A stretch of 64,000 nucleotides of DNA, taken from positions 9,055 to 73,054 of IMG/VR virus record IMGVR_UViG_3300011398_000004; one strand, written 5' to 3'. Source of the DNA: a virus. Below the pieces are notes generated by a model, which saw only the letters and a program-made list of their open reading frames with translations, searched no databases and had not been told where the DNA came from. Made by a program: the position numbers and the translations under genes. This document shows, in pieces, positions 9,983 to 43,400 of this stretch (position 1 is its first letter; each line of letters begins with the position of its first letter).

Positions 9983-10013
9983 AGAACTTTACAAATCTCG
10001 AACTTTTAGGATC

Positions 10014-12314: not shown

Positions 12315-12400
12315 TAAGAACAAATCTGCTGGCTGCGCCGTGCTATATTACTACTGGCGCAGCGCATACCGCGCGAGCCACATAAAGGAGATAGGAAGAT

Positions 12401-12903: not shown

Positions 12904-12916
12904 GGAGATAACGAAG

Positions 12917-13165: not shown

Positions 13166-13346
13166 ATTTCCGTGATCCTCGTTCGTTTGGACTACAGATA
13201 TGATCTCGCGGCGGTGCCCAAGACCCCGGCTGAACATATCAAGTGCCTGAACTTTCGATAACTTCGAGAGCGGGACGTAGGAGAACTTCTTTGAACTTGA
13301 TAGAATTAAGAACCTTTGAGCTTTTGAAAAAGAGCAAAATAAGATA

Positions 13347-13375
13347 TTGCAATCTTGCGGCGAGCGTGCTACGCT
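13347..13375 (+). promoter_or_regulatory. promoter TTGCAA-N17-TACGCT inside the island
   Basis: TTGCAAtcttgcggcgagcgtgcTACGCT. The -10 is the same type as the phage early promoter family. Confidence 0.35.
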
Positions 13376-13452
13376 GCATTACACGGTGCGGGTGCAATTC
13401 AGCACCCCACCACACGTCGTCAATCAGCGGCAGATAGAGAGCAGAGTGTATC

Positions 13453-13905
13453 ATGAGCAGGAATCAGCGCGGTGGTGGAGTTCAGGAGCAGGAGAAGCCG
13501 GAGACGGAAGTCGCGGTCGAGACCACGGCTGTCGCGGAGAAGGCCAATCGCACGGCGTTCTTCCATTCGCCGCATCCGAAGGTCGGGCAGGCGTCGCGGG
13601 TCAGCTACACGATCCCCGGCGTCTCGGGCAATATCGTCATCTTCCTCAGCATGTTCAAGGACGGCGTCGCGCCTCCCACGCTGACGTTCGATGTCGACCT
13701 CGCGGAGCCGAAGGCGGACGGGAAGCAGGCCAAGGCGGAGGCCGCGGCGCTCAAGGCTCAGGAGAAGGCCGAGAAGGCGCAGGCGCGTCTCGTCGCTCAG
13801 CAGGAGAAGGCGGTGGCGATCGCGGCCAAGGCGCAGCAGGCGTTGGACGCGGCCAAGGCTAAGGTCGGGACGGCGGAGCCGAAGACCGAGGAAGTCACGT
13901 CGTAG
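13453..13905 (+). CDS. hypothetical protein with Ala/Lys/Gln-rich C-terminal coiled-coil or histone-H1-like tail
   Basis: ORF track. Overlapping Arg/Leu-rich ORFs on other frames are GC artefacts. Confidence 0.4.
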   Translation: MSRNQRGGGVQEQEKPETEVAVETTAVAEKANRTAFFHSPHPKVGQASRVSYTIPGVSGNIVIFLSMFKDGVAPPTLTFDVDLAEPKADGKQAKAEAAALKAQEKAEKAQARLVAQQEKAVAIAAKAQQALDAAKAKVGTAEPKTEEVTS

Positions 13906-13962
13906 AGCTCGGATTCTGGTTGCAACCGATGGTATGATCGGTTGCAGTCTAGACGCTCGGAG

Positions 13963-14005
13963 ATAGCCGCAGAGCACTCTCCCTCTGCGGCTATTCTTTT
14001 GTTCT
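13963..14005 (+). terminator. rho-independent terminator closing the island operon
   Basis: Perfect 12-bp stem ATAGCCGCAGAG/CTCTGCGGCTAT, 8-nt loop, then TCTTTTGTTCT. It is preceded by a second hairpin at 13919-13947 (TTGCAACCGAT/ATCGGTTGCA). Confidence 0.55.
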
Positions 14006-21126: not shown

Positions 21127-21438
21127 ATGGATAATCAGGCTTTTTCGATAGGACGAATTGTCCATTATAGGCTAAATGCCGATGATGCTGATCAGATCAA
21201 TCGTCGACGAATTGGGCGACGCCCAACTGCTAATGACGTAGCATGGCCTCAAGGAGCCGTAGCCCATGTAGGAAATATGGTTCACGAAAATGACGTATTT
21301 CCAATGATCATCACTCGCGTATGGGATACTGATCATATCAATGGGCAAGTTTTCCTCGATGGCAATGATCTCTATTGGGCTACATCGAGGAAATTTGGTG
21401 ACCAACCTGGGACATTCTGTTGGCCTACTCGAGTATGA
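21127..21438 (+). CDS. hypothetical protein
   Basis: ORF track. Confidence 0.4.
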   Translation: MDNQAFSIGRIVHYRLNADDADQINRRRIGRRPTANDVAWPQGAVAHVGNMVHENDVFPMIITRVWDTDHINGQVFLDGNDLYWATSRKFGDQPGTFCWPTRV

Positions 21439-22976
21439 TATCTTCTTCTCTTAAGGAAGAAGATATTGGTGATCCAATCGAAGCACTTGCAGCGATTGAA
21501 TTAGAATTACAGAAGAGGAATTGGCAAGATAATCCATCTTTATGGGTTAAAGAAAGACTGAATGAATATTTGTGGTCCTTACAGACTGTAGTATTACAAT
21601 CTGTAAGGGACCATCGTAGAACTCTTGTTCAGTCTTGTCATGCGATGGGTAAGTCGTGGCTCTCAGGAAGAGCCGCTGCATGGTGGATAGATGTATGGCC
21701 TGTAGGAACTGCTTTCGTCGTTACATCGGCTCCTAGCGGACCACAGGTAAAAGCGATTCTTTGGCGCGAAATTGGCCGCGCTTTCATGAAGGGTAAACTC
21801 GATGGAAGAGTTAACCAAACGGAATGGTATCGCTCAGTCGGAGGTAAAGAAGAAATCGTCGCCTTCGGTAGGAAGCCCGACGATCTCGATCCCGCTGCCT
21901 TCCAGGGTATTCACTCTCGTCGCGTCCTTGTTATTCTGGATGAAGCCAACGGTATCCGAGGTCCATTACACGAAGCCGCAGGATCCCTCATAGCTAATGA
22001 TGAATCTAAAATATTAATGATAGGAAATCCAGATGACCCTAATGGCGAATATTTTGAAGCGTCTAAACCGGGCTCTGGATGGAATGTGGTCAAGATCTCG
22101 GCGTTCGATACTCCAAACTTCACCGGAGAAGAACTTCCCCTCGACGTCCGTCAGCAGCTCATTGGAAAAACGTATGTTGAGGAGAAAAGAAGAAAGTGGG
22201 CACCTCTCTGGAGATGGAACGAAGAAGGAACAGCATGTATACCACCGGAAGGAGTAGATCCAGAGACTGACCCTAATTCGAATCCGATGTGGAAGTCGAA
22301 GATTTTGGGGGTTTTTCCTGAGAAGACTGAAGCAGGTGGGCTTATTCCTATTTCTTGGGTTAAAGCGGCACAATTACGAGATCTTTCCAAAACTACAATC
22401 GAGAAGAACGCTATTAACGAATTAGGTGCAGATATAGGTGGCGGCGGAGATGACTCAGCAACATGTCAGCGTAAAGGTGATGTTTATCGTATATTACGTT
22501 CTTATACAGAACCTGATACAATGATTCAATGTGGGATTATCATAGATGATTTGAATAACACAGGAGCATCGTGTGTTAAAGTTGATAAGATTGGTATTGG
22601 TTGGGGAGTTGTTAATCGTGGTCAGGAATTGAAGAGACCATTTATCGGTATTAATGTCGGTGAAGGGGCTACTGAAGACGATACTGCTTCGGATGAAAGA
22701 TTTGCGAATTTAAAAGCAGAATTATGGTGGAATGTTCGTAATATTTTCGAACGAGGACTTATCGACATTGATGCAGAGGATGAAGATCTCGCTGCTGAGT
22801 TATGTTCCATTCGTTATATAAGATTATCAAGTGGAAAGATTAAAATTGAGGATAAAAGACGAGATTCGAAAGGGAAGGTAATAGCATCACCTAATAGAGC
22901 GGAAGCATTGATGCTTGCGGCGACTCCTAAACGATTACACCGCGGTGTGATAGAATTAGAAGTATCATGGGGATGA
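21420..22976 (+). CDS. terminase large subunit
   Basis: 518 aa; Walker A-like SCHAMGKSWLSG and Walker B VLVILDEANGI, with a C-terminal nuclease-like region; immediately upstream of portal. Confidence 0.7.
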   Translation: MAYSSMISSSLKEEDIGDPIEALAAIELELQKRNWQDNPSLWVKERLNEYLWSLQTVVLQSVRDHRRTLVQSCHAMGKSWLSGRAAAWWIDVWPVGTAFVVTSAPSGPQVKAILWREIGRAFMKGKLDGRVNQTEWYRSVGGKEEIVAFGRKPDDLDPAAFQGIHSRRVLVILDEANGIRGPLHEAAGSLIANDESKILMIGNPDDPNGEYFEASKPGSGWNVVKISAFDTPNFTGEELPLDVRQQLIGKTYVEEKRRKWAPLWRWNEEGTACIPPEGVDPETDPNSNPMWKSKILGVFPEKTEAGGLIPISWVKAAQLRDLSKTTIEKNAINELGADIGGGGDDSATCQRKGDVYRILRSYTEPDTMIQCGIIIDDLNNTGASCVKVDKIGIGWGVVNRGQELKRPFIGINVGEGATEDDTASDERFANLKAELWWNVRNIFERGLIDIDAEDEDLAAELCSIRYIRLSSGKIKIEDKRRDSKGKVIASPNRAEALMLAATPKRLHRGVIELEVSWG

Positions 22977-23143
22977 TTTATGATAAGAATTAATCGTTAT
23001 GATGTTCGTGGTCGTTGGTATTGGAGAATATGGAGAGGGAGTAAGCTGATTGCTAGATGTGCTTATTCATATGATTCTTCAGAAAAAGGGTCTATAAAGA
23101 TGGAAAAAGATTTACACCTTTTATTCCCTCAATGGTTTAAATA

Positions 23144-24634
23144 ATGTCAGTCGATACTAAACACGTCTCTTACGAAGCATTAGAAGATCAATGGAGTCGT
23201 TGTAGAGACTGTGCGTCTGGAGAAGATGCTATTAAATCGAAGAAGACTAAATATTTACCTGCATTAGATAGCCATATTAAAGATAATATGCTAACGAATA
23301 AATATGGCGATTATCTAATGCGAGCGATGTTTTACAATGCCGTAGGAAGAACAATAACAGGATTATCAGGAGCTATATTCCAAAAAGCACCTTCCGTAGA
23401 CGTATCTGAAGGAATTATAAAAGAACAAATTAAAGATGTTACAATCACAGGACAGCCAATAGATTTATTCGCATTAAATGTTACGAGGGAATATCTTACT
23501 ACCGGGCGCGTAGGCATTTTAGTGGACATGTCGACTGAATTAGCGACTAGTCCACGTCCATATTGGGTCTTATACGAAGCAGAAAACATTATCAATTGGC
23601 GTTTCAAGAATCTTGGTGGTGATAAGGAATTGAATTTAGTAGTACTCAGAGAGACAGTCGATAAATTAGATCTAGATGATGAGTTTTGTATCGAGCCTGT
23701 TGTTCAATATCGTGTTTTACGTTTATCAGATCCTGGCATTTATACTCAGCAAGTCTTTGTAGAAGTTGAAAACAATTACGGAACTATTCCTGGAGTTAAA
23801 CCTGGAGAAAAAGTGTATGAAGGTGGTCCTATAATTATTCCTACAAGAAGAGGGCAACCTTTGAATTTTATACCGTTTTCACTTCCATGGGCTATAAATG
23901 CACCGCCTTTATTAGACCTCGTCTCAGTAAATTTAAGTCATTATCGTGGAACTGCTGATTTGAAACACGGACTTCATTTTACAGCACTTCCTACACCGTG
24001 GGTAGCAGGAGATGGGACTGATACTAATAAACCTCTTTCTATAGGTTCAGGAACAGCTTGGTCGTTGGGTAAAGACGGTAAAGCTGGGATGCTCGAATTT
24101 ACCGGTCGCGGATTAGGTGCTATAAAAACTGATCTATTAGATATGCAAAGACAGATGGCAACACTCGGCGCACGTCTATTAGAGGAAGCTCCTCGATATG
24201 CCGAGACTGCAATGGGCGTCTCGATGCGTCATGGTAGTGACTACGCTACTTTACGTATGGTAGCACAGATAGTCGAACAACAGATTTCATTTGCTCTAAA
24301 AATTCATTCATGGTGGCTTTCGACTGAGGAATTAGTCGAAAAGATGAAGGCAAATGTTGAATTAAATAAAGTCTTCTTCGATCAATCTGTTACAGCCGAT
24401 GAATTACGTGCGCTTCTTCTCGCATTACAGGCTTCGACTATCTCATTTAAAACATTTTATGAGAGACTATCCAATACAGGATGGACACGGGAAGGGATTG
24501 ATTCCGAGGAAGAGCTTGAGGAAATTAAGAAGGATGGGGATCAATTCAAGCCACCTGAGAAACCAGGATTGCAGCAACCTGATCCTAAATCGACAGCACC
24601 GGGGAGTAAACCTCCACCGAAACCAGTGAGCTAA
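23144..24634 (+). CDS. portal protein
   Basis: 496 aa, directly after TerL; acidic Pro-rich C-terminus; call is from position and size. Confidence 0.55.
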   Translation: MSVDTKHVSYEALEDQWSRCRDCASGEDAIKSKKTKYLPALDSHIKDNMLTNKYGDYLMRAMFYNAVGRTITGLSGAIFQKAPSVDVSEGIIKEQIKDVTITGQPIDLFALNVTREYLTTGRVGILVDMSTELATSPRPYWVLYEAENIINWRFKNLGGDKELNLVVLRETVDKLDLDDEFCIEPVVQYRVLRLSDPGIYTQQVFVEVENNYGTIPGVKPGEKVYEGGPIIIPTRRGQPLNFIPFSLPWAINAPPLLDLVSVNLSHYRGTADLKHGLHFTALPTPWVAGDGTDTNKPLSIGSGTAWSLGKDGKAGMLEFTGRGLGAIKTDLLDMQRQMATLGARLLEEAPRYAETAMGVSMRHGSDYATLRMVAQIVEQQISFALKIHSWWLSTEELVEKMKANVELNKVFFDQSVTADELRALLLALQASTISFKTFYERLSNTGWTREGIDSEEELEEIKKDGDQFKPPEKPGLQQPDPKSTAPGSKPPPKPVS

Positions 24635-24635
24635 T

Positions 24636-24869
24636 ATGGAAGACGATTTTAAAATTAGTATAGGAAGAATGGGAAGAGAATGCACTATTTCTTTGAATGA
24701 TAAAGATATATCTAAATATGTTCAGAGAATTATTGTAGATGCAAAACCTATGGAATTAACTAAAATTTGGATTCAAATATCCCCGATGGGGACTAAATTT
24801 GAAGTAACAGGAATAGAAAACCCTAATTTCTATATACCAGAGGATATTCCTAAGATTCCTGAGGATTAA
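24636..24869 (+). CDS. hypothetical protein
   Basis: ORF track. Confidence 0.4.
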   Translation: MEDDFKISIGRMGRECTISLNDKDISKYVQRIIVDAKPMELTKIWIQISPMGTKFEVTGIENPNFYIPEDIPKIPED

Positions 24870-25109
24870 ATGTTTAAGTCATTAAAATCGGAACCTAAAT
24901 CTTCATTGGAATTACAAGCGCAGGCGCTTAAAGTTCTTCAGGGATTGCCTGTAGAAGATGCTATAGGTGCAGCTTGCTCTTTTTTGCTCTATTCCTCTTA
25001 TAACCATAGAATCCAATTTAGACGTGTAATGAATGAAAAAGTAATTCGAGAAGGTTTTTCTGGTATTTCACTGTTAGAACAATTCAATCGTGTTAGTAAG
25101 GAGCTATAA
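24870..25109 (+). CDS. hypothetical protein
   Basis: ORF track. Confidence 0.4.
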   Translation: MFKSLKSEPKSSLELQAQALKVLQGLPVEDAIGAACSFLLYSSYNHRIQFRRVMNEKVIREGFSGISLLEQFNRVSKEL

Positions 25110-25537
25110 TGGCAAAAAGTGCATCGTTCGCGAATTCATTGCTTCTATTGATTTTTAATGCTACTCTTTTCGCTAACGTAGCAATCAATGCGACTTCGTC
25201 ACCGATTACGAATGTCCATGCAAGTCTACATACAGCAGATCCAGGAACTGCTGGTGATCAATCTACGAGTGAGATTACTTATACGAGCTATGCAAGAGTT
25301 GCAGTTCTTCGCACATCTGGTGGATGGACTGTAACTGCGAATTCTTGTAGCCCATTAGCTGCAATCACATTTCCTGCTGGAACTGGTGGTTCTGGTACGG
25401 CAACTCATTTCGGCTTAGGAACTCTTCTTTCTGGTGCAGGTGTTCGCATCTATTCCGGCACTGTAACTCCTAATATCGTCTGCGGAAATGGTGTTACTCC
25501 TTCCCTCTCGACAGCTTCAACTATTGTGGAGACCTAA
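25109..25537 (+). CDS. hypothetical structural protein
   Basis: ORF track. Confidence 0.45.
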   Translation: MAKSASFANSLLLLIFNATLFANVAINATSSPITNVHASLHTADPGTAGDQSTSEITYTSYARVAVLRTSGGWTVTANSCSPLAAITFPAGTGGSGTATHFGLGTLLSGAGVRIYSGTVTPNIVCGNGVTPSLSTASTIVET

Positions 25538-25538
25538 T

Positions 25539-25772
25539 ATGGAATCGAAGATCGTGACGGCAATAGGTGTTTCAGTAAACACCGTTCATGGTGCAGATGC
25601 AAATCGACGTATTGAAAAAGCTGTGAACGAGGAAATTTTAAAATGTAATGAAGAAGGAATAAGTACGGAAGAAAAGAATTCTTCTATTATTCGAGAACGG
25701 ATGGCTAAAGCACATCAACGTGTATTAGCAGAAATTGAAGAAGAATTACGAAAATCTAATGAGGAATCGTAA
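25539..25772 (+). CDS. hypothetical protein
   Basis: Internal Met of ORF 25488..25772. Confidence 0.4.
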   Translation: MESKIVTAIGVSVNTVHGADANRRIEKAVNEEILKCNEEGISTEEKNSSIIRERMAKAHQRVLAEIEEELRKSNEES

Positions 25773-26215
25773 TGGCAACTATTAAATGGACTACACTGAG
25801 TAGTGTAGTCGCAGCATTAGCGAATGCAGATATTGCTTCTATTGTGAATAACGCATACTCTGCACTTGGTACTGCGATTAATAATTCAAGTGCCCTTGAT
25901 AGATGGGGTTGGCTTGAATTGAACCTTGGTTCTATTGATCCAGTTGATGGCGCATGTATTTTCGTATATCTATTACCATCATTTGATGGTGGAACAGATT
26001 ATGATGATGGTCCTAGTGCGAATAATCCTTGTTCGCATAATATCGTTGCAGTAATGTCAGTTAATATCGCTAGTAGTGCAAAAAAGATCACATATGGTCC
26101 AATTCCATTACCAGCAGGACATTTTAAATTTGCACTTCGTAATTGTACTGGAGTCACGTTAGCTGCAACTGCTAACACTCTTGATTTATATACAAATAAT
26201 GAAGCAGTAGCATAA
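25772..26215 (+). CDS. hypothetical structural protein
   Basis: ORF track. Confidence 0.45.
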   Translation: MATIKWTTLSSVVAALANADIASIVNNAYSALGTAINNSSALDRWGWLELNLGSIDPVDGACIFVYLLPSFDGGTDYDDGPSANNPCSHNIVAVMSVNIASSAKKITYGPIPLPAGHFKFALRNCTGVTLAATANTLDLYTNNEAVA

Positions 26216-27103
26216 ATGGCTCTCTCACAACCAACAGCAAGAGGAGCGGCAGCAGACCCAGCTCCTAAATTAAAACTGGATCAATCAACTGGTTCAGTTC
26301 TTAATTCCGATTGCTATACAATGATGGTCTGGGCTTATAATTCCACAGCGGCTATTGGAGATGGAGCTTATTCGGATATTATGTGTGTACGTGATTCCAC
26401 TATAGGTGGTGATCCTAGTGATGATAAGGTAGTTGCTATCTACCATAAAGATGTCTCAACTAATTGGATTCTTTCCATGGGTGATGATATCGAGGATATT
26501 GATGCCGGCGTTCGTATTCCAGCACTCCAGTGGCGGCATTACACTCTAACTTCACAAGATATGCCTGGACAAGAGGTTAATATTACTTCTTATTTAGATG
26601 GAGCACAGCAGAAACGAGCATTGGATGGTACAACAGATGTAACACCTCCTATATTTCCAAATAATGACTGTTTCATTCAATTATTCAATAGTCGATCATC
26701 AGCTGCAGATTCATCTAGTATCTGGGTTGGTCATATGGCCGCATTTAAATGCTGGAATAATGTGGCATTGACACCTGAAGAAATTAAACGTGAAATGTGG
26801 ACTTATGTTCCAATTCGTAAAGCAGGTTTATATTCTGCTTTGCCAATGATTAATAAGGCACATTCTGTATTCGATTTAACTGGTAAAACATGGACGGTAA
26901 CAGGCGCAGATTTTGTAGATAGTAATATTAATCCACCAGGAGTTTCTTGGCAGAATCGATGGTTAAGTCGTAGTATCGTAAATTCTCCAGCTAGTGCTGC
27001 TCTTACAGGAACAGTCACAGCCGCTATTACAGAAGCTGATATCGTTACTGGTGGTAAGACTATTATCTTGACCGTAACCGGCGATACGTTCATTCCAAAT
27101 TGA
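26216..27103 (+). CDS. hypothetical structural protein
   Basis: ORF track. Confidence 0.45.
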   Translation: MALSQPTARGAAADPAPKLKLDQSTGSVLNSDCYTMMVWAYNSTAAIGDGAYSDIMCVRDSTIGGDPSDDKVVAIYHKDVSTNWILSMGDDIEDIDAGVRIPALQWRHYTLTSQDMPGQEVNITSYLDGAQQKRALDGTTDVTPPIFPNNDCFIQLFNSRSSAADSSSIWVGHMAAFKCWNNVALTPEEIKREMWTYVPIRKAGLYSALPMINKAHSVFDLTGKTWTVTGADFVDSNINPPGVSWQNRWLSRSIVNSPASAALTGTVTAAITEADIVTGGKTIILTVTGDTFIPN

Positions 27104-27110
27104 GAATTTA

Positions 27111-27887
27111 ATGGCTGACACAAAAATATCCGCTTTAACGGGAGCATCTGCTGTTGTTGCGGCAAATGAGTTTGCTATCAACGAAGCAGGTACGTCTAAA
27201 AAGGTTACAGGTACACAGATCAAAGACTTCGTGAATGACGCACCTGTATTCGCCGCAGGAAGTGACTCAGCAAACACGAAGCCGAAACTCACTGTTGGCA
27301 CATTGTTGACAACACCAGAAGCAGGCGCATTAGAATTAGATGCTAATTGCTTATATGGAACAACAGATGCTGGTAATCGTGGGGTTATACCAATTCGTCA
27401 TTTCATTAGATGTAATGCGACGAGAACACTACCTAATGACACCGCAGAGAATGCTATATTCGCTTCACCCGCAAATGGACGATTAACCCTAGAGATTGGC
27501 ACTTATCTATTCGATATGGTCATCGGCATTACGGCTATGAGTGCTACATCAGGTAATGCACTGTTAGATATTCTTGGTGCAGGAACTGCGACATGTAACG
27601 ATTGGCTATATGCCGTTCTCGGTAAGGATGCAACACTTATCAGTGTCGCTGCCGTTCTTGGTGTCATGCCAGTTATCCAGAGCACTCCGGCATCTATGTT
27701 CACAGCAGGCACAGGAGCCGAGATGTGGTGGATCGCGAAGGGATCGTTTACAGTCACTGTAGCAGGAACGTTGATTCCCTCGATTGACCAAGTCACTGCC
27801 GCTGCCGCCGTCGTAGCCATTGGTTCATATTTTTCATGCGAACGAATTGGTGATGCGGCTGTCGTCAGTGTTGGTCAGTGGGATTAA
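27111..27887 (+). CDS. fibre-like protein with conserved tail-fibre N-terminal motif
   Basis: MADTKISALTGASAVVAANEFAINEAGTSKKVTGTQI matches the widespread tail-fibre/tailspike N-terminal anchor motif (KISxLxxA...TKKvT..Ql). Confidence 0.5.
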   Translation: MADTKISALTGASAVVAANEFAINEAGTSKKVTGTQIKDFVNDAPVFAAGSDSANTKPKLTVGTLLTTPEAGALELDANCLYGTTDAGNRGVIPIRHFIRCNATRTLPNDTAENAIFASPANGRLTLEIGTYLFDMVIGITAMSATSGNALLDILGAGTATCNDWLYAVLGKDATLISVAAVLGVMPVIQSTPASMFTAGTGAEMWWIAKGSFTVTVAGTLIPSIDQVTAAAAVVAIGSYFSCERIGDAAVVSVGQWD

Positions 27888-27892
27888 TTTAA

Positions 27893-29794
27893 ATGGCTGC
27901 CCGCATTCTGCTGGAAACTGGTGATGCACTCTTAGCAGAGAATGCGGATACTCTACGTCGAGAAGAAGTATTTTTCGATGATACACGTCAAGATATTATT
28001 AATGGTTTAGATTCTGATCAAGCTGAAGCTGGCGGTTGGGATGCGAAAGTTAAACCGAATATTCCAATTGCTAATGTTATACGAACATCTGATAATGTAG
28101 CTACAATCACTTTACAAGCACAAAGTGATCATGATATAACAGTTCAAGAAATAATTACAGATATAATTCCTGGGTCTGCTCTTGTAGGTGGTAGTTCTAT
28201 TGTAGTGATACCATCATTTACAATTGATCCAGTAATTGTGAATAATATAGGAGCTTCAACTGGTTTAGCAACTGCGTTAGGTATAGGTCTTGCATTAGCT
28301 CTTAGTACAGCATCTGCAATAGGAGCATCTTCAGTCACCGCTGTTGGATCGAGTATTGTCTCCGCCGTAGGTTCTATATCAGGTTCTTCTTCCGTAGCAG
28401 GAACTGGTAAATCAGATTTTATAGCAGTTGCGTCAGCGACAGGCTCCAGTAGTGTAGCTGCAACTGGATCAAGTATTGCTTCAAGTTCTGGTGCTTCAAC
28501 AGGATCTTCTAATATAACTGTTGTAGGTTCATCATTAGCAGTTTCAGTAGGTTCTGCTTTCGGCGTAGCATCCGTATTAGGAACAGGGGCTTCTCGATTT
28601 GATGCTATAGGTTCGTCCGTTGGTGCCGCTACTGTACTAAGTACGGGTGCAGGCTTAGCCAGTTCTCTAGGTGCTTCAACAGGCGCGGCAACAGTAGAAG
28701 GGATAACTTCTTCAGCAGACCCTATCGGTTCGATAGTAGGATCTTCATCCGTAACAGCAATAGGTTCTTCATTAGCTACTTCAATTGGACTTGTTTCAGG
28801 TTCTTCATCTGTTATAGCGATAGGGACATCGGATGTTTCTGCTGTTGGTGCAGCTATTGGATCATGTTCAGTAGCGGCAACTGGGAATTCGTTAATTACA
28901 TCCATCGGTTCTGCAGTAGGAGCTTCATCTGTTGTAGCTACTGGTCAATCTTTATTTACCGCAGTAGCTTCCTCGATTGGATCATGCACAGTAGTCTCTA
29001 CTGGTAGTTCATTATTTACAGCAATAGCTTCTTCAATAGGATCTTCATCTGTTTCAGCTACGGGTCAATCTACTTCTACATCTATAGCCTCCTCGATTGG
29101 ATCATCTGTTGTAATATCAACTGGTGCTTCACTATTTACAGGAATAGGATCTGTAACTGGTTCTGCATCTATTACAGGAATAAATGGCGAACAGATTATT
29201 GGAGTTATTTCTGGTTCTAGTTCTGTTCTTGGTATAGGATCTTCTCTTGCAACATCTATTGGTAGTGTCACTGGATCTAGTTCTATTTTAGGTATAGGTC
29301 AAAGCCAAGTAAGTAGTATTGGATCATCTATAGGTTCATGTTCAGTTTCATCTGTAGGAGCGAGTAATTTCCGAGGAATAGCGGTTTCATCTGGCAGTTC
29401 AATCGTTACATCTACTGGAACTGGAATAAAGATAGCAGTTGGGTCTTCTATTGGTTCTTGTTCAGTCAGTTCAACTGGTTTATCTTTATTCACAGGAATT
29501 GGTGTATCTTCTGGTAATGCGAATATTTTAGGAACTGGTAATAGTCAATCTATAAGTATAGCATCTTCGATAGGATCTTCCTCGATTATAGCTGTTGGCG
29601 TTGGTGGGTCAATTAGTATCGGGACAGTAATAGGATCATCTGATGTTTTATCTATAGGATCTGCTTTAGGTGTTTTCCCATATATTAATATCACTTCACA
29701 AACAGTTTTTGATCCAGGATTACCTGTAGTAATACATGAAATACGGACTATTTCTGTAACTGAGAGAACTCTTAGGGTGACTTTAGATGTCTAA
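27893..29794 (+). CDS. Ser/Gly/Ala-rich repetitive fibre-like protein, about 35 imperfect 12-aa repeats (xIGSSSVxAxGxS)
   Basis: 633 aa, e.g. SAVGSSIVSAVGSISGSSSVAGTG...; 36-bp DNA periodicity. The antisense ORFs 28144..28905, 29065..29271 and 29299..29493 are repeat artefacts. Confidence 0.55.
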   Translation: MAARILLETGDALLAENADTLRREEVFFDDTRQDIINGLDSDQAEAGGWDAKVKPNIPIANVIRTSDNVATITLQAQSDHDITVQEIITDIIPGSALVGGSSIVVIPSFTIDPVIVNNIGASTGLATALGIGLALALSTASAIGASSVTAVGSSIVSAVGSISGSSSVAGTGKSDFIAVASATGSSSVAATGSSIASSSGASTGSSNITVVGSSLAVSVGSAFGVASVLGTGASRFDAIGSSVGAATVLSTGAGLASSLGASTGAATVEGITSSADPIGSIVGSSSVTAIGSSLATSIGLVSGSSSVIAIGTSDVSAVGAAIGSCSVAATGNSLITSIGSAVGASSVVATGQSLFTAVASSIGSCTVVSTGSSLFTAIASSIGSSSVSATGQSTSTSIASSIGSSVVISTGASLFTGIGSVTGSASITGINGEQIIGVISGSSSVLGIGSSLATSIGSVTGSSSILGIGQSQVSSIGSSIGSCSVSSVGASNFRGIAVSSGSSIVTSTGTGIKIAVGSSIGSCSVSSTGLSLFTGIGVSSGNANILGTGNSQSISIASSIGSSSIIAVGVGGSISIGTVIGSSDVLSIGSALGVFPYINITSQTVFDPGLPVVIHEIRTISVTERTLRVTLDV

Positions 29795-30134
29795 CATATT
29801 ATCAGTCGTAGCTGGATGGACTGCATTATTAGGCCCATTTACACTCCGTGCAGATGGTGTTCCTTTAGATCTATCAGGATTTATTGTAGAATTAGTTCTA
29901 AAGGATTCTTTTGGAAATCTCGTAGTTCATGGTGGGACAGTTACAGTATTAAATCAAATTACAAATCCTGGTCAAGTTACTTATGAACCTGTATCTGCAG
30001 ATTTCGTATTTTCTCCTTATGGTAATACTGGACGACAACCGTATACAATTCGTTGGAAGGTAACTGATGGTGCTGGGGATATAATCTATTTCCCTAATAC
30101 TGTCGCAGATGAAATTGGTGTGTATCGACTTTAG
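29787..30134 (+). CDS. hypothetical protein
   Basis: ORF track. Confidence 0.4.
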   Translation: MSNILSVVAGWTALLGPFTLRADGVPLDLSGFIVELVLKDSFGNLVVHGGTVTVLNQITNPGQVTYEPVSADFVFSPYGNTGRQPYTIRWKVTDGAGDIIYFPNTVADEIGVYRL

Positions 30135-30142
30135 GAGGAATT

Positions 30143-30334
30143 ATGGTAGAACTTAAAATAATGATGGATGACCATGGAAATTGCAGAGTAGAAGGACCCA
30201 TTGATAATAAAATGGTCTGTTATGGAATGTTAGAACTCGCAAAGGAAGCAATACATATTCATCATCTTAAGCAAGCTGAACGACTTATACAGCCAGCTTC
30301 AACTATACCGTTTACGCCGAAAGGTGTAAATTAG
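30143..30334 (+). CDS. small hypothetical protein
   Basis: ORF track; AGGAGG Shine-Dalgarno. Confidence 0.35.
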   Translation: MVELKIMMDDHGNCRVEGPIDNKMVCYGMLELAKEAIHIHHLKQAERLIQPASTIPFTPKGVN

Positions 30335-30369
30335 TATCTAAAATAATGTGTTTTCGTGTAAAATAGCTG

Positions 30370-30398
30370 TTGCTTTTGGCTTTTAGCTATGGTATCAT
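30370..30398 (+). promoter_or_regulatory. promoter TTGCTT-N17-TATCAT, with TGG extended -10, driving the GIY-YIG gene
   Basis: Read directly; the track start 30389 lies inside the -10 box, so the real start is probably ATG 30416. Confidence 0.4.
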
Positions 30399-30415
30399 AC
30401 AACTGTAGATTGTTT

Positions 30416-30916
30416 ATGAGCTTTAAGCCTTGTATCTATGCTTTAATTGACCCTCTATACCCTAATCAAATTAGGTATATTGGAAAGACGATTAAAAAAG
30501 GAAGATTGAGGGCTCATGAAAAAGAAGCAAAACTTTGCATAGAAAGACATAGTCATAAACTTAATTGGATTCGTAGTTTATTAAGACAAAATAGAACTTA
30601 TATAATTCAGATTTTACAGGAATTTCCGTTAGATATCTCTAAGGAAGATTTATTTAATGCAGAAATTTATCATATAGCTAAAGTAAAATTAGAAGGCCAT
30701 AATTTAACTAATTCAACTTCTGGTGGAGAAGGTGGATTTGTTGGACCTTTTTCTGAAATTATATTGAATAAAATACGAGAAAAAGCAAAAGAATCTTGGA
30801 AAAATCCAAAGAGACTAGAAATAAAAAGACAAATAGAGAATAAACATCGTTCTTGTAGAGCTGCGATAACAAGAAGAAATTCATTATCTACAGAATCATT
30901 AGGTTCATTTTTATGA
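30416..30916 (+). CDS. GIY-YIG homing endonuclease
   Basis: CIYALIDPLYPNQIRYIGKT is the GIY...YIG motif; sits with its own promoter between fibre and scaffold genes. Confidence 0.65.
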   Translation: MSFKPCIYALIDPLYPNQIRYIGKTIKKGRLRAHEKEAKLCIERHSHKLNWIRSLLRQNRTYIIQILQEFPLDISKEDLFNAEIYHIAKVKLEGHNLTNSTSGGEGGFVGPFSEIILNKIREKAKESWKNPKRLEIKRQIENKHRSCRAAITRRNSLSTESLGSFL

Positions 30917-31722
30917 AAGCAGTCATTAACGCTTTAACAGAAGTTGAAGAGCCTCTTCGTAATGAATACGAAGAGCGCGAAGGAAAATTCTATTTAAAAT
31001 TAGATGGGCAACTCCCAGGATTTGTTGACGCTAAAGAACTCTTAGCGGCAAATGTAAAGGTTGTTGAATTTCGAGATCGTAATATAGCTTTATTAAAAGA
31101 GAATGACGAACTCCGTCCCTTAAAACTCAAATATGAGGGGATTGACCCTGTCGAAGCCAAAGATGCTATCGAGAAAGTTAAAGCTCTTGGCAAGAAGGGG
31201 ATTAAGGACGTCGAGGATTTTAATAGTCAAGTAAAGATGGTTGCAGAGGATTTAATTAAGCCTCTTCGTGAGCAACTTGCTACGTCAGCAGCAGAAACAG
31301 CAGCTGAACGTAAACGTGCAGATGAATCTCTTCTCCATTCCAAAATCACAGACCATTTCGTTAAAATGGGTGGACGTTCTACTGCAACTGACTTTGTAGT
31401 GAATCTTGCCAAAGAAACATTTGAAGTAAAGGAACGTAACGTCACTGCAAAACCTGGAAAATTCAGCGTGAAGAAGCCGGGTGATCCTATTACTCCAGAG
31501 GAATGGTTAGCTGAAGTTGTTCAGAAAGATCATGACTATGTCTTCACTCCTTCGAATGGTGGAGGGGCTCCACCTGTAAAAGGAACGAATACACCAGTTC
31601 CATCGAAGACAAAACCGGGGCAGACAATTCTCAAGAATCCAACTCCGCAGGAATTGGGGCAATTCTCTACGGATATCGCAGCGGGTAAAATAAAAGTAGA
31701 ATTTGATACGACAACCGCGTAG
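30913..31722 (+). CDS. head scaffolding protein (candidate)
   Basis: 269 aa, Glu/Lys-rich helical, immediately upstream of the major capsid gene. Confidence 0.5.
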   Translation: MKAVINALTEVEEPLRNEYEEREGKFYLKLDGQLPGFVDAKELLAANVKVVEFRDRNIALLKENDELRPLKLKYEGIDPVEAKDAIEKVKALGKKGIKDVEDFNSQVKMVAEDLIKPLREQLATSAAETAAERKRADESLLHSKITDHFVKMGGRSTATDFVVNLAKETFEVKERNVTAKPGKFSVKKPGDPITPEEWLAEVVQKDHDYVFTPSNGGGAPPVKGTNTPVPSKTKPGQTILKNPTPQELGQFSTDIAAGKIKVEFDTTTA

Positions 31723-31814
31723 TTCACAAATTTAGTTAGAGACCATCTCGGGGAGATGGTCTCCGGCCTCGGTGAGACCGCTTTGGTATTAATTTTCCAG
31801 GGAGGTTTACATAG

Positions 31815-32963
31815 ATGGCCGGAGCACTTGTTACAACTAATATTCTTTCAACCCTCGTTGCGATGGGTCTTGCTACCCTTCGTGAACGTCTTGCCCTTGT
31901 TTTCATTGCAAATCGTGAATATGAGAGATTGATCTCTGGTGCGACTAAATTCGCAACAGTCAATGTAGCTGTTCCTGCGACTGTGGCAGTTCGCACAGTT
32001 GCACCGAATGTCGTTCCTCCTGCCGTAACTGCCGTTACCCCGACTTCCATCCCCATTACTCTCGATCAGTGGCAAGAAGCTCCTTTTGCAATGGATGATA
32101 AAGGACTTGTCCAGGTTGATAATGGGATTATCCCCATGCAGGCTAAGGAAGCTGTTAAGTCTTTAGCTAATGGTATTGAAGACTATCTCTGGTCTCTTCT
32201 TGCTGCAAAAGTCGCGAATTATGCTGGAACCGCAGGATCAACTCCTTTCGGTACTGGTCTTGATGATTTCTTGGCAGCGGATAAAATCCTCAATGATAAT
32301 TTAGCTGATCCTGAAGATCGCTTCATGGTCATCAATACTGCTGCGAAGGCGAGCGCAATGGGTCTTCGTGCAATTCAGGACGCTTCCTTCCGTGGCGGAG
32401 CTGGACCGAATTCATTAATCAGTGGTGAGATCGGTAATATCCTCGGCGCTCGTTGGGTTATGTCCCAGCGAGTTCCTAATCACGTTTCCGGAACTCTTTC
32501 GGGAGTAGGAACGACCGTTACTGGCGTGAATGCAATCGGCGCTACTGTTCTTGCATTATCAGGCGGCGCTTCAGGAACCATCCTTGCTGGCGACATCCTC
32601 ACTATTGCAGGACGTCAGTATAACGTAGTGAGTTCAGTTGGTGGTTCTACTCCTTCGTCAGTCACCATTGCAGCTCCTGGTCTTACTCTCGCAACTGCCG
32701 GTGGCGAAGTTCTTTCTATCGCTGCTTCGTTTGCTGCAAACATTCTCATTCAGAAGCATTGTCTCGCGTTTGCAATGGCTCCTCTGATTGATACTGTTGA
32801 AGTTCCTGGTGCAACTCTTCAGTCGGTAGCTATCGACGAAGGTTCTGGTCTTTCACTTCGCTTAGAAGTATCACGGCAGCATCGTCAGGTTCAGTGGTCA
32901 TTTGATGCTCTATATGGTGGAACTGTTGTTCGTCCTCAGCTCGCATCGTGGCTTGCTGGTTAA
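31815..32963 (+). CDS. major capsid protein
   Basis: 382 aa, after scaffold and followed by a strong terminator; AGGGAGG Shine-Dalgarno. Call is from position, size and composition. Confidence 0.55.
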   Translation: MAGALVTTNILSTLVAMGLATLRERLALVFIANREYERLISGATKFATVNVAVPATVAVRTVAPNVVPPAVTAVTPTSIPITLDQWQEAPFAMDDKGLVQVDNGIIPMQAKEAVKSLANGIEDYLWSLLAAKVANYAGTAGSTPFGTGLDDFLAADKILNDNLADPEDRFMVINTAAKASAMGLRAIQDASFRGGAGPNSLISGEIGNILGARWVMSQRVPNHVSGTLSGVGTTVTGVNAIGATVLALSGGASGTILAGDILTIAGRQYNVVSSVGGSTPSSVTIAAPGLTLATAGGEVLSIAASFAANILIQKHCLAFAMAPLIDTVEVPGATLQSVAIDEGSGLSLRLEVSRQHRQVQWSFDALYGGTVVRPQLASWLAG

Positions 32964-32977
32964 TAATCTGTAACACC

Positions 32978-33014
32978 GTGGGAGTTGGCTCAGACTGACT
33001 CCCACGTTTTCGTT
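32978..33014 (+). terminator. rho-independent terminator after the capsid gene
   Basis: GTGGGAGT/ACTCCCAC 8-bp perfect stem, 12-nt loop, then GTTTTCGTT. Confidence 0.55.
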
Positions 33015-33030
33015 CTATTAGGAGAGATCA

Positions 33031-33411
33031 ATGATTATTGTATCAGTCGAACCAAAAGCGGGTAAAGTTGGAGACGAGATTCTTATTTCAGGTTCAGCTC
33101 TTAATGTTGGCCCTGCAAAGAGCGCCGGTGTTGGATCTGTCACCTTTAACGGAGTAAAAGCTGATGTAGTTGAATGGTTACACGATAAAGTTCGTGTGAC
33201 TATTCCTAAGGATGCGGTTTCTGGTCCTCTTTGTGTTGCATTTAGTGGGGATGCAGTAGAGGTTCCCTTCGAAGTATATGCTGAGTCGGGTGAAGAGCGA
33301 AATGAACGACTCGCAAAAGCTGATGAAGAGGCAAAAGCTGCTGAAACTAAGAAAGCTGCGGATGATAAGAAAGCTGCCGCAGATTTGAAGAAAGCTGAAG
33401 AAAAGAAGTAA
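33031..33411 (+). CDS. Ig-like (IPT/TIG-type) domain protein with Lys/Ala/Glu-rich tail; candidate capsid decoration protein
   Basis: Beta-rich N-domain (VEPKAGKVGDEILISG...VTFNGVKADVV...VTIPKDAVSGPLCVAF), then AKADEEAKAAETKKAADDKKAAADLKKAEEKK. Confidence 0.45.
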   Translation: MIIVSVEPKAGKVGDEILISGSALNVGPAKSAGVGSVTFNGVKADVVEWLHDKVRVTIPKDAVSGPLCVAFSGDAVEVPFEVYAESGEERNERLAKADEEAKAAETKKAADDKKAAADLKKAEEKK

Positions 33412-34045: not shown

Positions 34046-34591
34046 ATGGCTGTATCTGCTCTTGTTACAACGCCCGGTTCTGCGACTGCTAATGCTTACG
34101 TTAGCAGGACAGTCGCAGATCAATTCCATTTGGATCATCCTCCATTTGGGACAAGTGCTCTGACAGGATTATGGGCCGCTGCAACGAATGACGAGAAAGA
34201 CGCTTCTATTTTATGGGCTACTAAACTCCTTGATCGTATGTTCTTATGGAATGGTTGGGTAGTAACTGAAACTCAGTCTCTTTTATGGCCGAGACAAGGA
34301 TTATATAGACCAAGTAGCTTATATGCTTTATCTTCTACTACTATACCAGATCAAATTCAATGGGCAACTGCTGAATTAGCTCGTCAACTCTTAATGTCTA
34401 ATCGTACAGCAGATTCTGATATCGAAGCACAAGGAATTAAACTCATAAAAGCTGGTTCAGTTCGAATAGACTTTAAAGACGCTGTTTATGCAAAGCCTAT
34501 TCCTGATGCTGTGATAAATTTAATCCCAATGGAATGGGGTTATGTTATCAGCAATGATAAGATTAATATAAGGGAGTTACTCCGCTCATGA
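34046..34591 (+). CDS. head-tail connector/adaptor (candidate)
   Basis: Called from position only. Confidence 0.35.
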   Translation: MAVSALVTTPGSATANAYVSRTVADQFHLDHPPFGTSALTGLWAAATNDEKDASILWATKLLDRMFLWNGWVVTETQSLLWPRQGLYRPSSLYALSSTTIPDQIQWATAELARQLLMSNRTADSDIEAQGIKLIKAGSVRIDFKDAVYAKPIPDAVINLIPMEWGYVISNDKINIRELLRS

Positions 34592-40235: not shown

Positions 40236-40472
40236 GTGTGCGAAGAATTTCATTGCCTCCCGGCTGAGGCCATTGAAGCTATTGAAAATGATATAGATGG
40301 GATGTTATTCAAAATATTAGATGTTAGAATATATTCACAAGCGAAACACATTTATGATACAACTCCAATGGATAAACGTCCTAAGACAACGGCTATAAAT
40401 AAAGTTAGTGAAATCACAATGGGATTAGCAAGAGAGAGAATAGAAAAATTTAAGAAGAACAATAATGTTTAG
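40236..40472 (+). CDS. tail assembly chaperone, second component (candidate)
   Basis: Position; overlaps the tape-measure start. Confidence 0.35.
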   Translation: MCEEFHCLPAEAIEAIENDIDGMLFKILDVRIYSQAKHIYDTTPMDKRPKTTAINKVSEITMGLARERIEKFKKNNNV

Positions 40473-43400
40473 TCTTGGAGATCTTTTAATATTTTTGAGG
40501 CTAGAGGATCTAGCTAGTCCTGCTTTAAGAACAGTAGGATACGAAGCTACTTTGCTCGGACGTGGTATGCGCGAAGCCGGCGCGATTATGACTGCCGGGC
40601 TTACTCTTCCTATTGTTGGATTAGCTGGTGCTTCTATAAAAGCAGCAGCAGATTTTGAATCTTCATTTGCAGGTGTTCGTAAGACAGTAGAAGCTACAGA
40701 ACCAGAATTTTTACAACTCTCTGAAGCATTTCGTCAATTAGCTTTAGAGATTCCTGTAAGTGTAAATGAAATTAATAGAGTTGCGGAAGCTGGAGGTCAA
40801 TTAGGTGTTGCTAAACAAGATTTATTAGAATTCACGAAGACGATGGTTGCTATGGGAGTAACCACTAATCTTTCATCTGATGAAGCTGCTACAGGATTAG
40901 CGAAATTTGCGAATATCATTAAGAATGAAGCAGGTCCACAATTTGATCGATTAGGTGCTACTGTTGTAGAATTAGGTAATAAATCAGCAGCAACAGAATC
41001 TGAGATTTTAAATTTCGGTTTACGTCTTGCCGGTGCTGGTAAATTAGTAGGAATGACCGAAGGAGAAATTTTAGGTTTAGGAACAGCATTAGCATCTTTA
41101 GGTCTTCGTTCTGAATCTGGAGGAACAGCCTTCTCTAAAGTTATGATGAATATGTCAAAAGCTGTTTCTATGGGAGGGAAAGAATTAGAAGAATTTGCTA
41201 AAGTTTCTGGGATGTCGGTAGAACAATTTAAGAAAGCATTTCAAACTGATGCTGCTGGAGCTATAGCTTCATTCGTAGAAGGTTTAGGACAAGTTAAAGC
41301 GGCTGGTGGAAATCTATTTATAACTCTTGAAGATCTTAATGTGAATGAAGTTCGTTTAAGGGATAATCTTTTACGAACTGCTGGCGCGGGTAATATGGTT
41401 CGGGATATGATGAATTTGGGTAATAAGGCCCATGAAGAAAATATTGCATTAATAAATGAAGCACAAAAAAGATATGCTACATATGATTCTCAGATGAAGA
41501 TATTTAGTAATACTATAGAAGATGTTAAGATTACATTAGGAAATGCCTTATTACCGATGATCTTATCTGTGATAAATACTTTCTCTGGGCCTTTTATTGG
41601 AACTATAAGATTTCTAGCTCAAGCATTCTTAGATTCTAATATTGTCATTAAAACTTTTATCGTGACTGTATTAGGTGTCATTGCCATCGCTGGTCCAGTA
41701 TTGATATTTTTTGGTCAGTTATTGATGTCTATCGGTAATATATCTAGAGCATGGCCGTTATTAACGGGGAATTTGTTAGCAGGCTCTGCGGCTATGGCCG
41801 CGAATACTGCTGCTGTCACAGCGAATACTGCTGCACTCGCAGCTCAAAGTGCAGCATGGGGAACTCTTGCAACGACAGCAACTGTTGCAACTCCTCCAGT
41901 CGTAACATTTGGAGCAGCTTTATGGGCTGCTGCTGGACCGATTGCATTAGTTCTTGGATTACTCGCTGCTATAACTCTTGCTGTAAGGGCTATGGGATTT
42001 GAATGGTCAACAGCTCTTACACTGACTTTCCCTCCTCTCGGAATGGCGATGAAAGCATGGGATAATGTAAAAGATGCTCTTGAACGTATTAAGCCATATT
42101 GGGATTCTACATACCAAGTATTACAGCAGTTATCAGAACTTCTTAATAATACTGTCGTAGTCTCTGTAAATTTTCTTAAGGATGCTTTCTTATATTTAAC
42201 TAATGAAGTTATAAAATTCTATCCTCCTTTTTCCGCTGCTAAACTGATATTTATGGCTATGAATACAGTCTGGGATGATATGAATGGTAGATTAACAACT
42301 TTAAAATCTAAATGGAAAGAAGTATCTGAAGCGATTCTTAATTCTATCCCGATGTATAGAGATTTTGTATTCATATCTCTTATTGCTCAATATGGTTTGA
42401 AAGAAGCTAAAAATAGATTAGATGAATTATCTAGTTCGATGAAAGAAAATGCTGATCGAGTGAGAGGACAAATATCTGGAACTACGCAGTTAAGTTCAGG
42501 ATGGGAAGCTTATCGAAAGAGTATAAATGATACGAATATTGGTGTAATGGAAGCTGCTGTGTTAAGTCGTAATTTACAAGATAGAATAGATGGTATGACT
42601 AGGGCACAGAAGGATGCCATTGAAGCTGGAAAAGGAAGACAATATAACGATAAACAAATTCTTACAGGATTAGAAGAATTAAATTTAGCTGAAGGCGTTA
42701 CTGTAGAAATGATTAATTTGTATCTGAAGCAGACCAACGCTGCTACCAAAGAAACAAAAGATCATGAAACTGCACTTCAAAAAGCTCATAAGATTTTAAC
42801 TGAATGGAATTTGATGATCGATAAAACTAATTTCAATTTACAGAAAGGAGGAAATAATCTTAGTGATTTTACTGCGGCTATCAAGAAATTTACTGATGTA
42901 GCGGATGCAGCGATTATTAAGAATGCTCTAATAATAAAGAGTATTCAATTAGATATAGATAAAACAGTACGTGAACGGACAATGACTACTTATGAACTTA
43001 GAATTGATGCTGCTAAAAGATTAGCTGCAGAAGAAAGACGTGGTATTGACTTCTCTAAAGATAGTGCTATGCAAGCCGGTATACTCGCTGATAAAAGATT
43101 AAACGATACAATAAGAGTAATATTAGCTGAAGAAAAATTAAATGATACTGTAGAAAATGCTCAAAGGATTTACGATAATGCAATAGAAAAAGCAAAAAGA
43201 TTAGCTGCAGAAAGAGAAGCATTTGCCGGGAGTTTAGGATCACTTAGTAATGCATTCACACAACTCTCACAAATCGTGGGAGAAAATGCTAATGGATTTT
43301 TTAAATGGGGAGCAACAGCCGCAGGAGCAGCGAATTTAGGCGCTAACGCAGGTATTCAGATGGCAGTAGGTTTTGATTTAGTAGCAAAAGGTGGAAAAAA

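Follow-up and report, generated by a model that had tools for sequence, protein, structure and literature searches.

A 20-residue-repeat protein as the probable rope of a Gp80-type bead-chain fibre encoded in a viral genome

What kind of structure is built by a large, repetitive gene that lies among the head genes of a virus? The question is raised by IMG/VR record IMGVR_UViG_3300011398_000004, of which positions 9,055 to 73,054 were analyzed here (a stretch of 64,000 nucleotides, hereafter the window, to which coordinates refer unless a locus is named). An earlier reading of this DNA, made from the sequence alone, drew attention to a Ser/Gly-rich gene of 633 codons, g633, and to the fibre-like gene that precedes it, g258, and suggested that the two form head fibres, a decoration, or a distinct adsorption apparatus. 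The open reading frame (ORF) of g633 is real and has the composition claimed for it (S 22.6%, G 13.9%; Ser, Gly, Ala, and Thr together make up 56% of residues), and both genes do lie between the portal gene and the scaffold and major capsid genes (Table 1). The sequence-only reading missed a third gene, g142, which sits 2.4 kb upstream of the repeat gene, outside the coordinates it covered, and which encodes a Gp80-like protein; because of this gene, we read the repeat protein no longer as the material of the fibre itself but as a string on which beads are carried. We consider it probable, if well short of certain, that g633 is the rope of a long Gp80-type beads-on-a-string side fibre, and that it is an unusually long and regular example of such a rope.

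The repeat of g633 had been described as about 35 degenerate units of 12 residues with a DNA periodicity of 36 bp, and neither figure held. Within residues 121-598, the identity autocorrelation at a lag of 20 residues was 0.39, against 0.152 ± 0.016 in 2000 shuffles (z = 15), and at a lag of 40 residues it was 0.38 (z = 13.7); a lag of 36 residues gave the background level. These values give 24 units in all, with a 20-residue (60-bp) period and a super-period of 40 residues (120 bp), and the secondary signals at lags 8 and 12 (0.26, z about 7) correspond to the spacings of conserved Gly residues within one unit. The autocorrelation of the DNA was only 0.41 at 36 bp and peaked at 120 and 60 bp (0.49 and 0.48), and Tandem Repeats Finder, which the sequence-only reading had proposed as a check, reported no more than 2.4 copies of a 120-bp unit, which were 76% identical. 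The consensus of the unit is S-I-G-S-S-S-V-x-A-T-G-x-S-L-F-T-S-I-G-S, and the similarity between units two apart hardly exceeds that between neighbours (0.41 versus 0.39 overall; 0.45 versus 0.42 in the second half). The antisense ORFs that had been attributed to the repeat exist (one is listed in Table 1), and periodic antisense ORFs run alongside nearly every repeat gene in related loci. Copy-number phase variation, for which the repeat DNA had been thought an obvious substrate, fared worse: the 60-bp units share on average 41% DNA identity, the best pair reaches 77%, and the longest exact repeat is 16 bp, so that the copies are too diverged for slipped-strand variation to be plausible.

Similarity searches with g633 at E <= 1e-3 recovered only 17 homologues, none of them annotated and the best only 40% identical, and comparisons with Pfam, PHROG, and PDB sequences gave no usable match. 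Matches to 3k2g (E 0.66) and to a Lap adhesin (E 0.014), which surfaced in family searches with g633 and g258, were treated as chance.

The bead protein is far better placed. The product of g142 matches the Gp80 family (Table 1), which Pfam describes as "Podophage GP4 fibre I protein gp80"; a hidden Markov model (HMM) built here from the g142 family recovered GP4 gp80 at 8e-20, and ORF55 of FelixO1, the whisker orthologue, matched the Pfam Gp80 model at 2e-4. By its sequence, g142 is a homologue of GP4 gp80 and a distant relative of the Felixounavirus neck whisker. The family is large, with 1824 Gp80-like cluster representatives (50% identity) at E <= 1e-3. The whisker proteins of phage Bas63 are structural relatives of GP4 fibre I. 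Subunits of this kind dimerize and enclose a chain, the rope, "like beads on a string", the rope passing through grooves in the monomers and completing their incomplete beta-sandwiches (PMC12609058). The rope of GP4 is longer and is a protein in its own right, which interlocks with an immunoglobulin (Ig)-like collar and carries five dimers (PMC12609058). If this account holds, a phage with a Gp80-type bead needs a rope.

The association of Gp80 genes with 20-residue-repeat proteins was examined in both directions. For the forward comparison, 80 IMG/VR loci were chosen solely by similarity to g142 and all of their ORFs were scanned for periodicity; an ORF was counted as periodic if it lay on the same strand and had a period of 18-22 or 38-42 residues, and a flank of at least 3 kb was needed. 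Autocorrelation measures were used for this purpose in place of an HMM of the 20-residue repeat, which was too insensitive for counting. A periodic ORF lay downstream of the Gp80 gene in 38 of 55 loci and upstream in 1 of 65, and a BLOSUM-based measure of periodicity gave 35 of 54 downstream versus 4 of 65 upstream (Fisher p about 5e-12, which is indicative, as the loci are not independent). In the reverse direction, five of the six contigs reached via g633 homologues carried a same-strand Pfam Gp80 gene within 6.5 kb, and the sixth held only an unassigned 144-residue candidate. Cultured and GenBank phages are also represented: in Microcystis phage Mae-JY04 the bead gene and the start of the repeat gene are separated by 7 nt, in Sphingobium phage Lacusarx (in whose paper fibres or whiskers are not mentioned) the Gp80 gene is paired with a LamG domain and degenerate repeats, and the metagenome-assembled phage genome MW202711 in GenBank has the Gp80/repeat pairing as well. 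The periodic ORFs of Gp80 loci range from about 220 to 1810 residues. Repeat proteins of ~1800 residues with a 20-residue period and a lag-20 identity of up to 0.67 are encoded at L019 10146-15575 and L044 8432-13756; should they be ropes, the bead-chain fibres built on them would be expected to reach several hundred nm.

GP4 itself has a gene of this kind. Its gp79 (AXG67774.1; L005 8948-9925, minus strand) adjoins gp80 and encodes a protein of 325 residues, annotated as virion-associated, with about 11 degenerate Gly-rich repeats of ~20 residues (best lag 20, z 3.7, with a harmonic at 40). PDB sequence searches located gp80 in 8JOU (10 chains) and gp81 in 8JOV (12 chains), and gp79 is absent from the deposited PDB sequences. 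Unless those who solved the structure have made the assignment already, gp79 is a strong candidate for the fibre I rope; literature searches on the rope protein and gp79 found only the Bas63 paper (PMC12609058), the original GP4 report (Zheng et al. 2023) lying outside their coverage.

The window has, in g633, 24 repeats of 20 residues with two predicted strands each, linked to a bead gene. The strands come from AlphaFold2 (AF2), and the same prediction raises the possibility that g633 folds on itself into a long beta-solenoid or beta-helix rod, curli-like or trimeric, which would form the shaft of a fibre to which the Gp80-like proteins are attached in some other way. With 13 homologues in the alignment, AF2 placed two 8-residue strands in each unit of residues ~290-560 at a predicted local distance difference test (pLDDT) score of 70-85, with a predicted template modeling (pTM) score of 0.49, and the regular 20-residue period with conserved Gly turns would suit such a rod. 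Over the whole protein, however, the mean pLDDT was 58 and about 40% of residues fell below 50 (the first 57, the last 44, and residues 193-267 among them), so that the beta-roll or beta-helix proposed by the sequence-only reading is only weakly predicted. Foldseek returned no match to the model at E <= 0.001; the top match, to curli CsgA, agrees with a solenoid in kind and had E = 1. AF2 is known to build solenoids from repeats. The authors of a 2026 study of siphophage LSH1 obtained a similar low-quality beta-helix model for an adhesin-attached domain, found it unreliable, and suspected a hallucination (PMC13243795). A solenoid of 24 rungs would moreover be only about 11 nm long, short for a shaft with separate tip proteins, and it gives no reason for the close association, in both directions, with a bead protein in need of a complementing strand. 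The AF2 model would fit equally a self-folding solenoid or rope strands that pair with one another for want of a partner, and, all points considered, we judge the solenoid unlikely.

Two further folds were considered. A fold like that of T4 fibritin, to which a comparison had been proposed, is not what the prediction gives: there is no coiled coil, the DSSP assignment consists of one 7-residue helix and otherwise strands, and there is no heptad periodicity. An RTX (repeats-in-toxin) beta-roll, with its 9-residue GGxGxDxUx motif and Ca-binding Asp, was rejected, as the period is 20 and neither 9 nor 18 residues gave a signal; g633 has few Asp residues (20 of 633), and Asp is never among the three commonest residues at any repeat position.

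The low-confidence segments, namely the termini and residues 193-267, together with the abundance of Ser, Gly, Ala, and Thr and a repeat number that varies widely among relatives (proteins of 220-1810 residues), could also be taken to indicate a flexible Ser/Gly linker, possibly glycosylated, that spaces a distal binding module from an anchor and has no specific partner. Against this, a period of 20-22 residues is strictly kept across very divergent sequences, including ITxGSIPITGQS (L087) and ATPAIATWTVPAPTLV (L098), and hydrophobic Ile, Val, Leu, or Phe occupy fixed positions of the repeat, which argues for a defined structure or binding register and makes a random linker, in our view, improbable.

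As a rope, g633 would be a single extended chain in which each of the 24 repeats offers two short beta-strands. We infer that g142 dimers would be threaded on this chain, each rope strand completing the sandwich of one bead subunit as in Bas63; the repeat number would then set the number of beads and therefore the length of the fibre. The count would be either 12 dimers (one repeat per subunit) or 24 dimers (one repeat per dimer), depending on the system used for calibration. The cysteines of FelixO1 ORF54 (Cys52, Cys69, and Cys90) have the same numbers as those reported for the collar of Bas63, which indicates that the FelixO1 rope has at most about 50 residues for four subunits, or ~11-12 residues (one strand) each; on this Felixounavirus scale, each 20-residue unit of g633 would hold a dimer, and the rope 24 of them. 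On the scale of GP4, with 10 gp80 chains against 10-11 gp79 repeats, each unit would hold a single subunit, and the rope 12 dimers. Weak support comes from the 40-residue super-period, which a polar chain running through twofold dimers might show. If the 478 residues of the rope were fully extended (~0.33 nm per residue), the bead-bearing part would span roughly 150 nm, alongside a tail that would measure about 230 nm as estimated from the 1528-residue tape-measure protein at ~0.15 nm per residue. One end of the rope would be anchored at a collar, at the head-tail junction, and the other would carry a receptor-binding tip formed by the lectin g295, the trimeric TNF-like knob of g258, or both. 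The role of such a fibre would be an initial, reversible attachment to surface glycans; for fibre I of GP4, binding of lipopolysaccharide has been suggested, as described in the Bas63 paper (PMC12609058).

Fusions of Gp80 domains were also encountered. Protein P0139 is a tandem Gp80-Gp80 protein, a single-chain "dimer", and is consistent with bead dimers. Proteins P0150, P0242, P0267, and P0235, of 580-1130 residues, join a Gp80 domain to large globular regions that are apparently enzyme- or lectin-like, and in P0150 two or three rope-like Gly-rich units directly follow the Gp80 domain.

Several observations weigh against a rope. The Gp80 loci are phylogenetically non-independent, which leaves the p-values for linkage indicative only, and about a third of them have no detectable periodic ORF, although the repeats of some, like those of Lacusarx, are degenerate. 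The two calibrations disagree, FelixO1 and Bas63 using ~11 residues per subunit and GP4 gp79 ~20, and the identification of gp79 as the GP4 rope is our own and not taken from a cited source. AF2 on g633 alone gave a moderately confident self-packed beta structure in residues 290-560 (pLDDT 70-85), as a solenoid would. Lastly, the window yielded no homologue of gp81, the collar protein of GP4, or of the collar of Bas63; when the cluster proteins were compared by BLASTP with the ORFs of GP4 loci, gp81 included, there was no match, FelixO1 ORF54 being left out of that comparison.

The beta module in the N-terminal part of g633 is 61-66% identical in homologues P0002 and P0009 and about 40% identical in P0001, and AF2 placed three strands at residues 59-91 with low confidence. 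Short strand-like end motifs of the form E/R-x-hydrophobic, recognized by eye only and without statistics, are found in g633, GP4 gp79, and the 625- and 543-residue proteins of Mae-JY04 and Lacusarx.

The fibre-type N-terminus that the sequence-only reading recognized in g258 was borne out: its first 80 residues are 47-49% identical to the N-termini of annotated tail-fibre proteins of the Methylophilales podophages MEP401/402 and 44% identical to a structural protein of Roseobacter phage CRP-5. Both traits tested for a trimeric fibre with a TNF/C1q-like knob, a C-terminal jelly-roll and a shared N-terminal anchor, are present in g258. Its family is large and well conserved (1031 matches), with an identical copy of g258 on a 73-kb metagenome contig, and neither the sequence, searched against Pfam, PHROG, and PDB, nor the family profile, searched against PDB, gave a usable match. 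The gene 3' of a g258-like gene encodes a rope in the window, MW202711, L086, and L087/88, and a non-repetitive protein in L091; on the one contig examined for the closest relative of g258 (86% identity), the partner is a different, non-repetitive protein, with a threefold "LLE" motif. This motif, which in g633 reads ILLETGD-ALLAEN-TLRREE, was present in the protein after the g258-like gene in all four sequences examined for it (window 27902-27967; L087 8801-8870; L091 4680-4770; L086 within 8794-11070). It occurs with or without repeats (for example, RILLETGDALLAENADTLRREE and RYLLESGAPDGYLLEDSSGVLLLEEE), at the protein start in three of the four and internally in L086. We suggest, with low confidence, that it docks one rope chain to the trimeric knob of g258.

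The lectin-like protein g295 is a candidate sugar-binding component of the tip. Its C-terminal module and the N-terminal module of g633 occur within one polypeptide in P0001, P0002, and P0009, and g295 is probably part of the same fibre end as the g633 N-terminal module. In L086, Lacusarx, and L098, one protein holds both the repeat region and a LamG-like domain. The polarity of the fibre is uncertain; L098 has the repeats N-terminal and the LamG domain C-terminal.

The site of attachment bears on the remaining claim of the sequence-only reading. Its distinct adsorption apparatus stands in spirit, as a separate appendage encoded among the head genes; the location on the head probably does not, attachment at the neck or collar being judged likelier by analogy with GP4 and Bas63. 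Head fibres or a decoration on capsid hexamers or vertices would agree with the position of the genes between the portal and capsid genes and with PHROG and RefSeq, which label Gp80-like proteins "head protein", and some up-facing Bas63 whiskers touch capsid decoration proteins (PMC12609058). That label, however, is older than the structures, in which the relatives from Bas63, and from GP4 as described there, attach at the collar on the connector or adaptor and not on the capsid shell (PMC12609058), and in other phages the same module adjoins tail-tubular or adaptor genes. The window also encodes a more conventional candidate for decoration directly 3' of the major capsid gene, and we hold head fibres to be highly improbable. 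This candidate (33031-33411, plus strand), 126 residues long, combines an Ig-like domain of the IPT/TIG type (E 1.2e-5) with a tail rich in Lys, Ala, and Glu, and is plausibly a capsid decoration protein separate from the fibre module.

The window phage is long-tailed, as indicated by its tape-measure gene (Table 1), and the best explanation for the genes at 24870-30134 is that they form an accessory module for a fibre, which a siphophage-like genome has acquired between its portal and scaffold genes. When 21420-33411 was compared by Megablast with the phages of GenBank, nothing matched, and a promoter and terminator scan of 24000-31900 found nothing above shuffle expectation.

Table 1 Features of the putative fibre module and landmark genes of the window
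Feature	Coordinates	Strand	Description
Large terminase gene	21420-22976	+	
Portal gene	23144-24634	+	
g79	24870-25109	+	79 aa, travels with bead gene; no Pfam match
g142	25109-25537	+	Gp80-family "bead" protein; Pfam PF23140 Gp80, E 2e-12, 48 bits (cut-off 27); phrog_240, E 1e-12
g94	25488-25772	+	Small protein, travels with bead gene; no family match
g147	25772-26215	+	147-aa protein of the cluster; no Pfam or PHROG match; one weak homologue, in Gp80 locus L085
g295	26216-27103	+	ConA-like lectin (Laminin_G_3) with C-terminal "ITEADIVTGGKTIILTVTGDTF" module; Pfam PF13385, E 3.7e-7, 30.9 bits (cut-off 27.6)
g258	27111-27887	+	Short fibre protein, 258 aa, starts MADTKISALTGA; N-terminal anchor (about residues 1-45) and C-terminal TNF/C1q-like jelly-roll knob
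g633, whole gene	27893-29794	+	Proposed rope protein; 633-aa ORF
g633, N-terminal part	27902-28237	+	Triple "LLE" motif, residues 4-25, RILLETGDALLAENADTLRREE; conserved beta module, residues 28-115, GLDSDQAEAGGWDAKVKPNIP...ITLQAQSDHDIT
g633, repeat region	28253-29686	+	24 units of 20 residues (one of 18); proposed rope threading Gp80-like beads
g633, C-terminal tail	29687-29794	+	Possible anchoring segment; PYINITSQTVFDPGLPVVIHEIRTISVTERTLRVTLDV
Antisense ORF	28144-28905	-	253 aa, repeat artefact; 40-residue periodicity as in the sense strand
g115	29787-30134	+	Beta-rich, 115 aa; start overlaps g633 stop by 8 nt
Scaffold gene	30913-31722	+	phrog_206
Major capsid protein gene	31815-32963	+	P22-type
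Head-tail adaptor gene	34046-34591	+	Ad1
Tape-measure protein gene	40465-45051	+	1528 aa

Two of the small genes around g142 travel with it. Homologues of g79 (45-74% identity) lie directly upstream of the Gp80-like gene in L006, L007/L008, and L014, loci whose remaining backbones are unrelated, and homologues of g94 lie directly downstream of it in L006, L007/8, L014, L023, and L027; the true start of g94 is probably the internal ATG at 25539, just past the g142 stop. At the other end of the module, a 52%-identical homologue of g115 overlaps the end of an 860-residue protein with 22-residue repeats and LamG in L098. The g115 family profile found nothing significant in PDB, and g115 did not align with the 122-residue protein that follows the rope gene of L096. 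It is a candidate partner or attachment protein of the rope and the best candidate for a collar component.

The pairing of Gp80 and repeat genes spans unrelated backbones, including SU10-like and other podophages, siphophages, 200-kb contigs, Mae-JY04, and Lacusarx, and all that these have in common is g79, g142, g94, and the repeat protein, from which we conclude that the module is mobile. A GIY-YIG homing endonuclease gene (30389-30916, plus strand; phrog_314, E 7e-9; weak Pfam GIY-YIG) lies at the right edge of the module, between it and the scaffold gene, and its position fits this mobility. Homing endonuclease or HNH genes also flank the Gp80 modules of L001, L095, L099, and Lacusarx, and such genes may be linked to the movement of the module.

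A second family of proteins, of ~135-147 residues (MA.F.T....ARLVATSATP...), was seen beside rope-like genes at L096 5653-6087, L098 5786-6190, L087 5399-5824, and L093 7062-7505. The family has no significant match to the Gp80 HMM, its members in L096, L087, and L093 have no Pfam Gp80 match, and the phages that encode it have no detectable Gp80 gene; these proteins may be very divergent beads.

Two features of the window lie apart from the fibre module. An 826-residue protein encoded on the minus strand at 57598-60078 has the domains of a major vault protein (MVP_shoulder, 3e-26; Vault_3, 1.7e-10; SPFH/Band_7, 1.5e-5), and its gene adjoins genes for tRNA-Leu (60106-60190) and tRNA-Met (60619-60692). 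Vault-like proteins are unusual in phages. The stretch at 12001-14000 has a GC content of 0.55, versus ~0.40 elsewhere in the window, with many overlapping ORFs on both strands, and may be foreign or non-coding.

Bead-chain fibres with a string are known from few phage structures, and in the literature searched the string is not recognized as a protein family. Gp80-like beads are common, yet their string has no entry in Pfam, PHROG, or PDB sequences, and at least one recent paper left the repeat domain unexplained (PMC13243795). We offer as a tentative proposal, one we would not yet bet on, that the proteins with 20-22-residue repeats beside Gp80-like genes constitute an unrecognized, widespread family of ropes that act as molecular rulers (~200-1800 residues) in podo-, sipho-, myo-, and jumbo-type phages, and that one asymmetric rope is joined to the threefold TNF-like knob of g258 through the triple LLE motif as a symmetry adaptor. 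If this were true, many unnamed large phage genes could be annotated as ropes by their 20-residue repeat, fibre length could be predicted from sequence, and the dubious AlphaFold beta-helices obtained for such repeat proteins would be explained. It would also describe an appendage built of modules (a string, beads, and lectin or enzyme tips that can be exchanged), which passes from phage to unrelated phage and whose host range could be an object of engineering.

Among known systems, curli CsgA and other beta-solenoids resemble g633 in their ~20-residue repeats and strand-turn-strand propensity, but g633 lacks Q/N ladders and has no sequence similarity to CsgA, and the linkage of g633 to a strand-accepting bead protein points to strand pairing between proteins and not within one. 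The neck fibres of Anabaena myophage A-1(L) (gp82-gp81-gp80; PMC10966104) differ in that their beads are trimers arranged head to tail with no central rope and are unrelated to Pfam Gp80. The gp34-gp36 module of the Alishewanella siphophage LSH1 (PMC13243795) is closer, as it has an adhesin, whose repetitive "beta-helix" domain was predicted poorly, together with a dimeric Gp80-like protein and a small Ig-fold beta-sandwich protein, and it is dispensable and mobile among relatives (PMC13243795). It is likened to the window here by description and not by sequence; it lies downstream of lysis genes, its N-terminal domain is lyase-like, and its authors did not read the repeat domain as a rope (PMC13243795).

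The Felixounavirus collar-whisker complex, in which the Bas63 gp4 collar has an N-terminal rope domain and gp5 forms the whisker dimers (PMC12609058), shares the beads-on-a-string arrangement, and the FelixO1 collar/rope and whisker genes directly follow the portal gene, the module of the window being likewise post-portal. There the rope is a segment of the collar protein, no longer than about 50 residues, and bears only two dimers, whereas in the window it would be a separate protein of 633 residues with 24 repeats; Felixounavirus whiskers may, in addition, mainly brace the head-tail joint. Fibre I of GP4 differs from the proposed fibre in that GP4 is a podophage, of Ralstonia, and the window phage has a tape measure and a long tail, and in that the rope of g633, with its 24 regular repeats, has about double the length, the tip proteins g295 and g258 are encoded separately, and the module sits between the portal and scaffold genes. 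The two systems nevertheless have in common a bead of the same Pfam family, a separate rope-like gene that adjoins the bead gene, and, as we propose for the window, an accessory adsorption fibre.

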